39,189 nt of DNA from a virus (lineage: Duplodnaviria > Heunggongvirae > Uroviricota > Caudoviricetes): IMG/VR virus record IMGVR_UViG_2703718862_000013. One strand, 5' to 3'. Shown one piece after another: positions 1 to 39,189 of the stretch; position 1 is the first letter of the stretch, and every line of letters begins with the position of its first letter. The notes under the pieces are model-generated. The model saw only the letters and a program-made list of their open reading frames with translations, ran no database searches and had not been told where the DNA came from. The translations under genes and the position numbers were made by a program.

Positions 1-100
1 CGCGGCGATTTTTTTGATACCGATTTGCATTTCATTTGATACTGCTGAAAAACGCCGATACGCAACTTATTTGATACTAAATCGGCGCTTTTCTTTTGAG
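1..100. repeat. Terminal repeat array, candidate transposase-binding sites at the prophage right end
   Basis: Four copies of (T)TTGATAC / GCCGATAC at 16-20, 38-42, 57-61, 73-77; window starts CGCGGCG, resembling Mu R1 interior (TGAAGCGGCG...). Confidence 0.4.
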
Positions 101-34857: not shown

Positions 34858-35085
34858 TTATCTGACTTGTTTTGCACCAACAGAACGGCATATTCCCCTG
34901 TAAACTTCTGTCGCACCTTCGCGATCAAGTCCGGCAGATATCACCATTCGTGTGCGGTCATTAAATTCAAAAAGTAAATCACCACATTCTTTATTTTCGG
35001 CCAGTGAAATCACCTTCACGTTATCGAAATTCACCAGGTAAAAGCGTCCGTAAATATCCGGAATATTAAATACCGCCATAATCAC
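34858..35085 (-). CDS. Hypothetical small protein at the position of Mu kil
   Basis: 75 aa, immediately after B; positional analogy only. Confidence 0.35.
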   Translation of the reverse strand: MIMAVFNIPDIYGRFYLVNFDNVKVISLAENKECGDLLFEFNDRTRMVISAGLDREGATEVYRGICRSVGAKQVR

Positions 35086-36023
35086 ACCTGTGAGAGTAAT
35101 TCAGGGTTGGTATAAACCTCTTTAAAGGCCGCATTAATATGTTTTTCTGTCAGCACAGCGCCTTCACCACTGGCGGTGATCCACGCCTGGTTAAGCGTAT
35201 GCGTCAGAACACGTAATGCTCCCGGTTTTTCAGCGATAGCCTGCATGACGGCCAGCTCGGCCTCACCACTGATCCCCCATGCCCTGGCAATGGCCAGCAC
35301 ATCCGCCTTTTTGGCCTTGCGAAGTTGTTTTGTACGGGCAAGACGGCTGAACAGGCGCGATAAATCATCAACGGCGCGGCGTCCACCTTTAAACAGTCCG
35401 CGCGGGTTACCAATAAGCACCATCCCGATCCCCGTGGCGTCCTGGATTGCCCTGAGTTGCTCCAGACCGTCAATACCAAGATGATCCGCCTCATCAACAA
35501 TCACCAGTCCACGCGTTCCCATCAGGCGACGGCGGATTGCGCGGGATAATGCCCCTTTGTTCGCGCGGGTGTAATCAATCCCCAGTTCCTCTGCCAGCTC
35601 CAGCAGACACTCCGTGACGCTGGAATGCGCAGGCGACAGGGTGATCATCCAGGTGTTCGGTTGCTCCTGACAGTAATTACGGGCTGTGGCCGTTTTACCC
35701 ACACCCGGTACGCCCACAATGACGTTAATACAGCCCATCAGGCGAACCGCCTGAAACAGTGCGCGCAGCTCCTGGACTGTCTGCGTTTCAACAAACTGCG
35801 GCGGCTCGGGCAGTGCGCTTTGTTTATTCCAGTTCTCATACCAGGAACGCAGGGAAGCAGCCACAGCAGCGTTATCGCCTTTATATTTCCCCTTACGGAA
35901 AGCCGATAATGTGCCGTCGGAAATTCCCGCCTCTCTGGCGATGGCATACTGCGTCAGTACGCCGCCATCAATAAGTTCATCAATGGTCTTGATTACATCG
36001 TTAATATCGGTCATATTATTCAC
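35082..36023 (-). CDS. B: MuB-like AAA+ ATPase (target DNA activator of transposition)
   Basis: Walker A GVPGVGKT; LPEPPQFVETQTV, LVIVDEADHLG, KKADV.AIA.AW match recalled MuB. Confidence 0.9.
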   Translation of the reverse strand: MNNMTDINDVIKTIDELIDGGVLTQYAIAREAGISDGTLSAFRKGKYKGDNAAVAASLRSWYENWNKQSALPEPPQFVETQTVQELRALFQAVRLMGCINVIVGVPGVGKTATARNYCQEQPNTWMITLSPAHSSVTECLLELAEELGIDYTRANKGALSRAIRRRLMGTRGLVIVDEADHLGIDGLEQLRAIQDATGIGMVLIGNPRGLFKGGRRAVDDLSRLFSRLARTKQLRKAKKADVLAIARAWGISGEAELAVMQAIAEKPGALRVLTHTLNQAWITASGEGAVLTEKHINAAFKEVYTNPELLSQV

Positions 36024-36063: not shown

Positions 36064-36098
36064 AACCTGAGTCACCCCTCGGGTTATTTTTTTTATTT
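36064..36098 (+). terminator. Terminator-like hairpin plus T-run on plus strand at the A/B junction
   Basis: AACCTGAG-tcacccc-CTCGGGTT followed by ATTTTTTTTATTT. Confidence 0.35.
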
Positions 36099-38188
36099 CA
36101 GGCCAGCGGATCATTTTCTTTTAATTTCGCTTCGAGCAGTTGCAAACCCCGCTGGAAATTACGCTCGTATTCTTCGTCAGGTTCATCGTCAGCGACTGGT
36201 TGCTGAACGGTCACCGTATTACCCACAGGGCGGTATATGTTTTCCAGCCATGGCTCCTGCGGCTTGTGCTCCAGCACGTTGACAACCTCATCCTCGGCAT
36301 CACGGATTTTTTCCTCTGCGCGTTTACGCATACCTTTAAGGCGCTGCTGCTGTTTGTAGTATTCCGCGCTGACAGGGAAGGCTTCGCGTTTATTGCCGTC
36401 CCATACCGCCTCGCAAATCACGCTGCCATCCGGGCGGCGTACGGTAATTCGTTCGGCATCATGAATGTCATAGCTGATAAGCACTTTGCGGCCATGTTCA
36501 TCACGCAGCTCGGGCGCGTAGTAAATATTATTCAGCCAGCGTATTTCACAGCGTCTTACAGGGCGTTCCACCATCGGCCGGAACATGTCCCGCAATTCCA
36601 CATCGGACAGCCATTCAATTTCCGTGTCCTCTTCCGCCAGGCGTTTTTTTCTGAACTCCGCCGGGCTGTAATGTTTACCGTTCGGCTTTATGGGTAATTC
36701 ATCGTGCGGCCGGTTGTTGTACCACTCAACGCCGTCACGAATGGCATCAATCAGTTCAGACCAGGACGGTAAATCACGCATCGCTGACTGCTGCCGGGCG
36801 TTCAGCCGCTTGCCCTGTTGCAGGGCACTGAATGCCGAGCGTAAATCGCGGTTGGTTTTACGTAACGTCTCGCGATCTGCACCTTTCCCGAAATAGGTGC
36901 GGTATTTACGGGCTATGCGCATCGGTAATGTGCGGTTAAGCCGTTCGATAATGCCCCGTCCCTGCGGATTACCGGCAATCCCGGTCGGGTGATTAATCCC
37001 CAGTCGCGGTAGTATCCCCACAACCTCCTTATCCAGGATGTCGGCCGTTTCCCCCGAGCCATTATCCGAGTAATACAGAAACGGTTTGCCGTGATGGCGA
37101 ATGCCGTGCTGTATGGCACCGGCTACGGCGAAAACATTTTCAGCCAGGTCAAGGCTCCAGCCCACCACAAAGCGCGTGCCACCGTCGATAACAAAGGTCA
37201 CTTCCGGTGCAAATGGTCGCCCGTGAACCGGGTGCGCACATTTCAGCTTCATGCCGTGACCGTCACCAATCCAGACATAATTCACCGGCATTCTGGACCA
37301 GTCGCGGCGCGTGAATCCCTCAAGCTGGCGGTATTCACTGCCGGTCACCCGGCCTTTTTGTTTCACCACTTCCGGCAGTTTCTTCATCGCGCGGCGAATG
37401 GTGTCATAAGAGGGCATGATATCGAGCATATAAGGCTCATCAGCGTGCCGGTGCTGCCATTCGGCGACAAAATCCTCGTAAGCCTCGGTCATTGGTCGGC
37501 CGTTTGACTGGCGATACTGCGCCAGAAACTCGGGCAACCAGCTAATATCTTCGGCTTTTATTTCCTGACGTTTACCCGGTGCCAGTAAAAGTAGGCGTTC
37601 AGCGGCGTTCTGCGCCTTGTTAAAGGCCGCAATCCAGCGTTTCAGCGTGATTTCACTCAACGCGCGGCTGTTTCCCTTTTTGGCGTTCGCCGTTTCAACC
37701 ATTGCCACAATGCGTTCGTCCAGTTGCGAGCGTGACAGACGGTCAACAATAAACCGGATAGCTTTAGCGCAGCTGAAACCGGGTTGTTGCGCGAATTTAA
37801 GCACCTCGCTGACAATCGCAATTCGTGCATCGGCCACCTGGCGCTGTTTTTCAGTCAGTGCATTGATACGTTCGACCATCAGTTGGGGTGATCCGCGATA
37901 TGCCTCCACCGCATCAACCACGGCAGGTGAGCGTCTGGCCTTTGTCACCACCGGAACCGGTGACTCATCGGCTTTTTGCGCCATCAGTTGCAGGGCGTAG
38001 CGTTCACGTAATGCCTGCTGCGTCACTTCAGGTAAACAGTCGATGCTGTATTCAGTTGCTTTAGATCCTGAGCGACGACGGGAACAACAGCTTTTCCCTT
38101 GTGCGTAACGTTGTAATGCCTGGCGAATACCTTTTGTAGTTGCAGGCATTCCGGGCGCACCAATCAGTTCTTTTGCAATGAAATACAT
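36098..38188 (-). CDS. A: MuA-like DDE transposase
   Basis: 696 aa; WIGDGHG and SDNGSGE catalytic-core-like motifs; N-terminal DNA-binding domain; between ner and B. Confidence 0.9.
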   Translation of the reverse strand: MYFIAKELIGAPGMPATTKGIRQALQRYAQGKSCCSRRRSGSKATEYSIDCLPEVTQQALRERYALQLMAQKADESPVPVVTKARRSPAVVDAVEAYRGSPQLMVERINALTEKQRQVADARIAIVSEVLKFAQQPGFSCAKAIRFIVDRLSRSQLDERIVAMVETANAKKGNSRALSEITLKRWIAAFNKAQNAAERLLLLAPGKRQEIKAEDISWLPEFLAQYRQSNGRPMTEAYEDFVAEWQHRHADEPYMLDIMPSYDTIRRAMKKLPEVVKQKGRVTGSEYRQLEGFTRRDWSRMPVNYVWIGDGHGMKLKCAHPVHGRPFAPEVTFVIDGGTRFVVGWSLDLAENVFAVAGAIQHGIRHHGKPFLYYSDNGSGETADILDKEVVGILPRLGINHPTGIAGNPQGRGIIERLNRTLPMRIARKYRTYFGKGADRETLRKTNRDLRSAFSALQQGKRLNARQQSAMRDLPSWSELIDAIRDGVEWYNNRPHDELPIKPNGKHYSPAEFRKKRLAEEDTEIEWLSDVELRDMFRPMVERPVRRCEIRWLNNIYYAPELRDEHGRKVLISYDIHDAERITVRRPDGSVICEAVWDGNKREAFPVSAEYYKQQQRLKGMRKRAEEKIRDAEDEVVNVLEHKPQEPWLENIYRPVGNTVTVQQPVADDEPDEEYERNFQRGLQLLEAKLKENDPLA

Positions 38189-38189
38189 A

Positions 38190-38438
38190 TCATGACGCCT
38201 TTCTCATATAGCTCTTAACCTGGTATCTGCTGGGCCAGATTTCTTCAGGTGACACACCAAGAGCATCAGCAATTATTTGTTGATATGGGCGGCAAGGGGT
38301 GCGTAATACGCTTTTCAGCGAATCCCTGCTGTAACCAGCCTTTAAAGATAAAGAGCGCAGTGATAAGCCAGCCATGTGCAGGCGCGCCTTGATGATTTCT
38401 GGCGGCCAATCGTGATCTGAAACTTCTCTTCTACTCAT
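38190..38438 (-). CDS. ner: Ner-like DNA-binding regulator
   Basis: ...IIADALGVSPEEIWPSRYQ matches recalled Mu Ner C-terminus; GAGGAA RBS. Confidence 0.8.
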   Translation of the reverse strand: MSRREVSDHDWPPEIIKARLHMAGLSLRSLSLKAGYSRDSLKSVLRTPCRPYQQIIADALGVSPEEIWPSRYQVKSYMRKAS

Positions 38439-38604
38439 ACTTCCTCTATTCTAAAAAGTTACCCGCACGGATATTCGGACGGATATCTGTACGGGTAAAC
38501 GATAGAACAAGAAAAGAACCAAATCAAGGTATTTTATTCTTTTTGTTCTTTATATTGTTTTCATCAATAAAATCAATTAGATAAGCGCGAAGGAACCTAA
38601 AGGC
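38439..38604. promoter_or_regulatory. Divergent early/repressor promoter-operator region
   Basis: Imperfect ~17-bp inverted repeat GTTACCCGCACGGATAT / ATATCTGTACGGGTAAA (38458-38499) containing direct repeats CGGATAT; AT-rich. Confidence 0.55.
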
Positions 38605-39189
38605 ATGAACATGAAAAAAAGTTCTTTTCTTGACGAAGGAAAAGAACCAGTAATCGAGCGAATATTTCGCCTTGCAGAGCGTTACAAATCGAGAAGTGAG
38701 GCGGCTAGGGCCTGGGGAATCAATATTCAGACATTGCAGAACTATTACAAAAGGAGAAACAATCAGCCACCACCACAGCCAAGAAAGCACCATCTCCAGA
38801 ACATTGCTGAAAAAGAACATGTATCAATGGAGTGGCTAATCTATGGTTATAATAATGAGTCAATCACAAAAAAAGAACTATTAGAACAAATAGAAAGAAC
38901 AAAAAAACAAGATGTAAATGATGGTGACTCCATCATCATGAGGGCGTGGGACTCGCTAACTTCATCTGAACAAGAGATTTTGTCCAATTTATTGATCAGA
39001 AAAGGGGCCGAGTTACTAACCATTTTACTTGATACTGATATTCAAAAGCTGCACTCATTGAGTGGGGTCAAAAGAGCATTGGCATTGAGTCTGCAAGAGT
39101 TACCCGATGATACTGTAAGAGAGATTTATGAAGAATGTGAGGCTAAGGTTAATCATTTAAATGTAACCCAGAAAAAGGCCGGTGCGTAA
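38605..39189 (+). CDS. Prophage repressor (c-position), HTH DNA-binding protein
   Basis: Divergent from ner; HTH-like SRSEAARAWGINIQTLQNYYKRR; AAGGAAC RBS; stop is last codon of window. Confidence 0.65.
   Translation: MNMKKSSFLDEGKEPVIERIFRLAERYKSRSEAARAWGINIQTLQNYYKRRNNQPPPQPRKHHLQNIAEKEHVSMEWLIYGYNNESITKKELLEQIERTKKQDVNDGDSIIMRAWDSLTSSEQEILSNLLIRKGAELLTILLDTDIQKLHSLSGVKRALALSLQELPDDTVREIYEECEAKVNHLNVTQKKAGA

Follow-up and report, generated by a model that had tools for sequence, protein, structure and literature searches.

A predicted Ner operator and a repressor with an XRE-type head and a Mu-c-type tail in the switch region of an Sp18-type Mu-like prophage

Phage Mu is the reference for transpososome assembly and for the block of transposition by a repressor, and the model drawn from it is built on an N-terminal domain shared by the repressor c and the transposase. 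Through these homologous domains the two proteins compete for the operator/enhancer, coupling immunity to the inhibition of transposition, while the C-terminal domain of Mu c serves oligomerisation and ClpXP-controlled stability. Homology between the repressor and transposase N-termini is described for both Mu and D108, and in Mu the enhancer overlaps the operator (PMC3820752, PMC3145075). Here we analyse the corresponding region of a 39,189-nt stretch of viral DNA (IMG/VR record IMGVR_UViG_2703718862_000013; the whole stretch is called the window below), whose last 4 kb form a Mu-type early region in reverse orientation on the map of open reading frames (ORFs). As in Mu, D108 and SfMu, the repressor gene lies at the left end and is divergent from ner-A-B, an arrangement common to all related loci. 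Between ner and the repressor gene lies a 40-bp near-palindrome that is most probably the operator of Ner, and the repressor itself is predicted to join an XRE/CI-type helix-turn-helix (HTH) head to a tail of the Mu c type.

The initial annotation had reported an imperfect inverted repeat at 38458–38499 containing two CGGATAT direct repeats, and had taken both as consistent with operator sites. The inverted repeat is real, and its limits were correct to within 1 nt (see table). It consists of two 19-nt arms, 38459–38477 (TTACCCGCACGGATATTCG) and 38480–38498 (CGGATATCTGTACGGGTAA), separated by a 2-nt gap and complementary at 16 of 19 positions (84%). When the 166-nt intergenic region was shuffled 2000 times with its dinucleotides preserved, no shuffle reached this match, and there is no second inverted repeat of the same quality anywhere in the 39-kb window. 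The palindrome holds four heptamers, TTACCCG (38459–38465), CGGATAT (38468–38474), ATATCTG (38483–38489) and CGGGTAA (38492–38498), for which the family consensus is TTATCCG nn CGGATAA, twice. Both copies of CGGATAT are present, at 38468–38474 and 38480–38486 within a 12-nt direct repeat (CGCACGGATATT / CGGACGGATATC), but they do not constitute a separate feature: the direct repeats are the two inner half-sites plus flanks, a by-product of the nested four-half-site dyad.

Conservation of the palindrome was measured across 27 distinct variants, and the anatomy of the switch was compared across 42 distinct related loci. The dyad was kept among the variants, with 87.9% of cells paired compared with at most 44% when the partner was slid. 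Changes on both sides were found at 11 of the 19 pairs, a value reached by 3 of 500 shuffles, and double changes filled 31 cells, which no shuffle in 500 reached. The four heptamers of a locus resemble each other (5.1 of 7 positions identical, versus 1.9–3.1 in shifted registers), several positions are invariant across loci, and each arm is itself palindromic. Treating the site as two independent 16-bp palindromes gave high pairing but covariation not above that of the shuffles; the 40-bp dyad accounts better for the covariation. The central spacer differs by 2 nt in distant relatives, so both descriptions of the symmetry are partly true.

Read from the ner start codon, the 42 loci share one order: the ner ribosome-binding site, a conserved CTATYCTAAAAAG, the 40-bp palindrome, and the −10 and −35 of a predicted early promoter (Pe), followed by a larger second dyad whose arms flank the −35, an AT-rich stretch and the repressor gene. 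The palindrome spans 21–60 nt upstream of the ner ATG, and its 21-nt distance from that codon is fixed in all related loci examined. Pe was placed by positional conservation across loci, after an empty default consensus scan. The best sigma-70-like match on the ner strand falls at the same aligned position, abutting the palindrome, in 36 of the 42 loci, and in several of them it is near consensus (for example TTGACA-17-TATGCT). Transcription from Pe is predicted to start near 38492, inside the right arm, and the palindrome would then occupy about +1 to +34 of the transcript. Since the palindrome covers this predicted start and abuts the −10, a protein bound to it would block early transcription. 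For the divergent promoter, the candidate Pc, the evidence is weak: a −10-like hexamer lies about −35 to −38 from the repressor ATG in 14 of the 42 loci.

Table. Features of the early region and the intergenic switch, in window coordinates
Feature	Position	Strand	Basis or remark
B-like ATPase	35082–36023	−	ORF map
Mu-type transposase gene	36098–38188	−	Mu transposase C-terminal domain 2e-17, Mu DNA-binding domain 5.3e-6 (Pfam)
Transposase N-terminal domain, residues 2–61	38006–38185	−	PF02316 5.3e-6
ner, 82 aa, Ner/HTH_35 family, first gene of the early operon	38190–38438	−	PF13693 2.5e-19, phrog_769 3e-26
Conserved CTATTCTAAAAAG	38446–38458		Between ner ribosome-binding site and palindrome; kept in nearly all loci
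40-bp near-palindrome, predicted Ner operator	38459–38498		Beyond chance, conserved dyad, four like half-sites
Predicted early promoter Pe	38499–38527	−	−10 TATCGT 38504–38499, −35 TTGATT 38527–38522, 17-nt spacer
Predicted main repressor operator	38502–38551		Dyad of four half-sites around the Pe −35 and spacer
Candidate weak Pc −10, TAAAAT	38568–38573	+	About 32 nt upstream of repressor ATG
Immunity repressor, 194 aa	38605–39189	+	XRE/CI-type HTH head, flexible linker, Mu-c-type helical tail (predicted)
Second operator-like inverted repeat, GTTCTTTTC-N9-GAAAAGAAC	38621–38647		100% complementary; repressor codons 6–15 (..SSF..GKEP..)

The assignment of the palindrome to Ner rests first on position. 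In D108 and SfMu an inverted repeat lies 25–54 nt upstream of ner, matching the place of the palindrome in the window, and the D108 repeat is reportedly the Ner site according to the footprinting of Tolias and DuBow. The Ner sites of D108 and Mu are inverted or repeated and lie downstream of the early promoter, before the start codon of ner, and a repeat is found at just this place in the window. The designs differ, D108 having an 11-nt perfect inverted repeat with two arms and an 8-nt spacer, whereas the window has four half-sites over 40 bp; the half-sites are of the type TTAYCCG in the window, where binding by Ner is predicted, CCGTGAGCTAC in D108 and CTAAGT in Mu. The chromosomal Ner homologue of E. 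coli, sfsB (42% identical), has no comparable upstream palindrome by eye, a comparison that is uninformative for the assignment.

The assignment rests secondly on the independence of the palindrome from the type of repressor. The window and locus L002 have the same palindrome, and it is identical in loci L013/L045 and L019/L049, yet the loci compared carry different types of repressor. A Mu-like phage inserted in a Shiga toxin (Stx) phage has nearly the same palindrome and an identical Ner, together with a repressor of 45% identity and different operator arms. The site is thus operator-like, as the initial annotation had it, but it belongs most likely to Ner and not to the repressor, to which the annotation had been taken to point.

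The repressor most likely has its own sites elsewhere. The main one is predicted to comprise the half-sites ATAGAAC (38502–38508) and AAAGAAC (38513–38519) on the plus strand and ATTCTTT (38536–38542) and GTTCTTT (38545–38551) on the minus strand, and an inverted repeat of the second type listed in the table is also present in locus L005, in Pseudomonas phage VW-6B and in most loci. We assign both to the repressor because the half-sites are enriched and track its recognition helix. The segment 38499–38660 contains four exact copies of AAAGAAC/GTTCTTT, with 0.05 expected, and three more with one mismatch. Across loci, repressors with TLQNYY in the recognition helix go with AAGAAC arms and those with TLNSY(F/Y) with AATACC arms; intermediate helices go with intermediate arms, and the covariation holds across several different Ner backgrounds. 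Within 38614–38650, the conserved N-terminal peptide K-E-P..S-F..G-K-E-P of the repressor is encoded by AAAGAAC / GTTCTTT / AAAGAAC, and this peptide, in the first 15 codons, may be conserved because its DNA is operator.

Several observations weigh against this interpretation of the switch. The sequence of the palindrome is unlike the inverted repeats upstream of ner in Mu or D108; such a difference is expected because Ner of the window is only 40–43% identical to Mu Ner, and the motif gives no direct support. The default promoter/terminator scan of 38300–38750 returned nothing, and the Pe hexamers of the window itself (TTGATT / TATCGT) are mediocre. Read on the minus strand, the palindrome is followed by CUUUUU and could form an RNA hairpin. 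The covariation of helix and half-site may stem from few independent evolutionary events. Finally, Ner, the transposase and the palindrome are always co-inherited in the sampled loci, so the comparison cannot separate Ner from the transposase head as the binder. An attempt to assign the binder by setting Ner and transposase-head variants against palindrome variants failed for the same reason, both proteins being too conserved and always linked. Motif transfer from three loci with PF02316-type repressors (L137–L139) was also abandoned, their Ner proteins being too distant (33% for L137); these loci support the general rule only, that a distinct repeat adjoins ner. In two of them (L138, 2305–2345; L139, 895–945) direct repeats CATGAG(C/T)TAC adjoin ner; they resemble the D108 repeat arm GTGAGCTAC and are separate from TTTGATATTAAC-type repeats nearer the repressor gene.

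In the first alternative, the Mu-type head of the transposase binds the palindrome, which would be all or part of the transposition enhancer. The transposase retains a PF02316-type head and therefore needs a DNA target, the target of the Mu transposase head lies in the same intergenic region (PMC3145075), and the palindrome is inherited together with the transposase no less than with Ner. However, strict two-fold symmetry and four equivalent half-sites, fixed beside the start codon of ner and covering the start of Pe transcription, are typical of a Cro-like regulator. The layout of the Mu enhancer is also different, its sites forming two clusters with an IHF site between them (PMC3145075), and D108, SfMu and two PF02316-type loci have a distinct ner-adjacent repeat apart from the other intergenic repeats. 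We regard the enhancer as an unlikely explanation.

A second alternative is that the palindrome acts as RNA, its minus-strand hairpin and the CUUUUU after it terminating or insulating read-through from the left end, while Pe transcripts, which start inside the 5′ arm, would escape termination. The minus-strand fold is stable (−20.7 kcal/mol, z = −4.3), the conserved U-run at 38446–38458 follows the hairpin directly on its 3′ side, and the predicted Pe start does lie inside the 5′ arm. Yet strict Watson–Crick pairs make up only 75% of palindrome cells, and the mismatches show no minus-strand wobble bias (37 versus 64), nor a wobble bias on either strand. The conserved base identities, the palindromic arms, the repeated like half-sites and the invariant positions are required by a protein-binding site and not by an RNA hairpin. 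The terminator scan was empty and no Rfam family matched; a sub-threshold hit to the pntA small RNA (25.7 versus 54 bits, E 0.2) was taken as chance. This explanation is of very low probability. That the palindrome is the operator of the immunity repressor itself, like Mu O3 beside ner, is the reading that fares worst against the evidence and is scarcely more probable: it lies in the repressor–ner intergenic region, abutting the Pe −10, and the repressor HTH is conserved enough across the family for a shared site to be conceivable, but it contains no AAAGAAC-type half-site, it stays unchanged where recognition helix and central operator differ (the same pairs of loci as above), and the near-identity of the window and L002 stops just to its right, where the operator arms differ.

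With the palindrome read as a Ner operator, we think it reasonably probable that the whole region, which runs in reverse in the window, decides between lysis and lysogeny in a transposable Mu-like prophage of the Sp18 type. The head of the repressor would bind AAAGAAC/GTTCTTT at four sites straddling the Pe −35 and spacer and at two in its own first codons. Ner, as a Cro-like first early product, would bind the four TTAYCCG-like half-sites and turn down early transcription, acting as at the D108 and Mu Ner sites. A Mu-c-type helical tail would complete the hybrid repressor.

The hybrid nature of the repressor was suggested by profile comparisons. Its match to PHROG 3037 ('transcriptional repressor') was full-length (3e-56, residues 1–192 to profile positions 3–189), while the Mu c family, phrog_7148, was matched by residues 89–191 alone (4.5e-7); reciprocally, residues 90–185 of Mu c matched phrog_3037 (1e-4). 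When a 32-sequence alignment of the repressor family was compared by hhalign with the Mu c, D108, SfMu and PhiR68 repressors, residues 103–182 of the window protein aligned with Mu c 97–178 (91.6%, E 8e-7, 80 columns), and the N-terminal part was unmatched. The match was weak against the single Mu c sequence (E 0.01) and became significant with the four-sequence alignment. BLASTP of the repressor against Mu c gave nothing significant, and a search of its sequence against the PDB gave no meaningful match. Judged by these profiles, the repressor and Mu c have a homologous C-terminal domain, of ~80 residues in the window protein. The two proteins are of similar length (194 aa and 196 aa), both have a lysine-rich ..KKAxx C-terminus (..TQKKAGA in the window, ..EVKKAV in Mu c), and neither has a peptidase domain, none being found in the window repressor with Pfam. 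By analogy, the window repressor may oligomerise and, like Mu c, be inactivated by ClpXP at its C-terminal tail and not by RecA-mediated self-cleavage.

The head is different. PF02316, the winged-helix domain that Mu c shares with its transposase, is detected in Mu c at 5e-54 and not in the window repressor even at E ≤ 1 (Pfam). Nor does the repressor reach the Pfam gathering score for PF01381 or PF07022, its only hits being to HTH_23 and HTH_psq below threshold. Weak PF07022 matches were present in 12 of 19 relatives (best 7.4e-6), and more distant members of the family pass the PF01381 threshold. An AlphaFold2 (AF2) model, with a predicted local distance difference test score (pLDDT) of about 90 in both domains, comprises a five-helix N-terminal bundle (residues ~16–80; helices 16–24, 30–37, 41–49, 61–71 and 75–80), a disordered linker and a helical C-terminal domain (~103–192), with INIQTLQNYY as the recognition helix, 41–49. 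Foldseek matched the modelled head to P22 c2, 434 Cro, SinR and ImmR (template modelling score 0.70–0.74, root-mean-square deviation 2.3–3.1 Å) and not to the Mu repressor winged helix. In the model, then, the head is an XRE/CI-type five-helix HTH, as the initial annotation suspected in calling the N-terminus generic and not Mu-c-like, and its predicted half-sites differ from those of Mu. The annotation had further proposed a swapped immunity module, which goes too far: the tail is homologous to that of Mu c, and the hybrid is one of domains. Homology to Mu c over the full length, which the annotation named as the observation that would count against it, was not found: only the C-terminal part aligns.

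The same tail occurs on other heads. A family profile search of 1.84 billion representatives returned 773 relatives, 151 of them at E ≤ 1e-10, and some were matched through profile positions 98–193 only. Among these, some carry a PF02316 N-terminus (whole-library E 1e-13 to 1e-18) and others a classical PF01381 HTH. Two E. coli proteins (P0032 and P0035) have a different, PF07022-scoring head and a tail almost identical to that of the window repressor (EECEAKVNHLNVTQKKAxA), which by sequence looks like recent domain shuffling between repressors. Because PF02316-, PF01381- and P0032/P0035-type heads carry the same tail, the C-terminal domain is a module common to several kinds of head.

The transposase kept what the repressor has not. 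Its head matched the Mu c family in hhalign (92.4%, E 5.3e-7) and scored 0.1% against the repressor family of its own phage. The homology between repressor and transposase N-termini is therefore, at the level of sequence profiles, broken in this phage, and the window does not have the Mu arrangement in which operator and enhancer sites are shared through homologous heads. With unrelated heads, the competition described for Mu cannot operate here in the same form. It is possible, although we put it forward tentatively and do not consider it probable, that the lineage (Sp18, VW-6B, Tongde and hundreds of prophages) swapped a Mu-type repressor head for an XRE-type one while keeping the Mu c tail and the transposase head. 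Some other element would in that case serve as enhancer, possibly the palindrome in addition to its role as Ner site, or repression of transposition would be purely transcriptional; operator half-sites would lie within the first 15 codons of the repressor gene.

Outside the Mu group, the head has its fold in common with P22 c2, 434 and 186 CI (PF01381/PF07022), and the lambdoid and 186-type switches have dyad operators over the lytic −35/spacer and divergent lytic and repressor promoters, as predicted for the window. The window repressor has neither an S24 peptidase nor a 186-type C-terminal domain, and carries the Mu-c-type tail instead. Closest are Sp18 of E. coli O157:H7 Sakai, Pseudomonas VW-6B and Yersinia vB_YpM_Tongde, which have the same ner-A-B backbone, repressor family and palindrome. 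PHROG 3037 includes the VW-6B, Stx-phage-inserted Mu and Tongde repressors, and its VW-6B member is annotated 'C repressor'; in the RefSeq records examined the label is 'hypothetical'. The prophage family, Ner, the general logic of the switch and the repressor label (PHROG, VW-6B) are thus already known. In the searchable literature we found no description of the XRE-head/Mu-c-tail architecture, of a large Mu-like lineage in which the heads of repressor and transposase are no longer homologous, or of the operator layout of Sp18-type phages. The family would separate, in nature, lysogenic repression from enhancer occlusion in enterobacterial and Pseudomonas Mu-like phages, and could be used to ask whether stable lysogeny depends on a repressor that occludes the enhancer. 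It also shows that the C-terminal domain of Mu c is portable, occurring on at least three kinds of DNA-binding head. In practice, the gene labelled 'hypothetical' can be annotated as an immunity repressor, and operator types would predict immunity groups among Sp18-like prophages.

The element appears, from its many O157:H7 matches, to be a member of the Sp18-type family of E. coli Mu-like prophages, and the Mu-type transposition backbone recognised in the initial annotation was borne out by the Pfam assignments of Mu transposase and Ner. A prophage of E. coli STEC2018-607 matches the window at 99.8% identity, and the allele of the window has ~91% DNA identity to the common copies in O157:H7 and other Shiga toxin-producing E. 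coli. A stretch at least 90% identical was found in 194 of 5426 complete E. coli genomes, in all of them on the chromosome. Sp18 is reported to be intact and packaged, and not to be inducible by mitomycin (PMC2669165), which fits a Mu-c-like repressor that is not of the LexA type.

The window ends exactly with the repressor stop codon, its final three bases, and the left end and attL lie outside it, as had been noted. In STEC2018-607 the phage DNA runs ~271 bp beyond that codon, ending ...GGTATCAAATGATTCACCTGGTTACA, at a junction with a disrupted gene upstream of bcsB that is annotated as a PilZ domain protein and that we take to be bcsA; a second prophage copy diverges at the same base. Since the phage DNA continues for ~271 bp and several IMG/VR proviruses likewise end at, or a few bases from, this stop codon, the edge is probably a gene-boundary cut rather than a phage end.

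Some minor features of the region were also observed. The sequence CCAAATCAAGGTATTTT (38519–38535), at the centre of the operator dyad with the Pe −35, and TCAATTAGATAAG (38573–38585), near the repressor start, are kept across the range from E. coli to Pseudomonas phage VW-6B. Both regions are near the IHF consensus WATCAANNNNTTR in many loci, and the corresponding region of Mu contains an IHF site. An exact AAAAGAAC occurs on the minus strand at 38167–38174, in codons 5–8 of the transposase gene (IAKEL), and 6 of the 7 copies of AAAAGAAC in the window lie within 38167–38878. The GC content is 0.37–0.40 in the repressor gene and intergenic region (38450–39189) versus 0.53–0.58 in the transposase and B genes, which sets the immunity region apart from the backbone in composition. 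At the other extremity, TTTGATACY occurs three times within the first 80 nt of the window (13–78) and four times in the whole window, compared with 0.48 expected. The left end beyond the window (locus L004, 3741–3861) has the reverse complement GGTATCAAA twice and the terminus ...TTACA. These copies are likely end-binding sites of the transposase, and the start of the window seems to fall within the right end, while its other edge stops ~271 bp short of the left.

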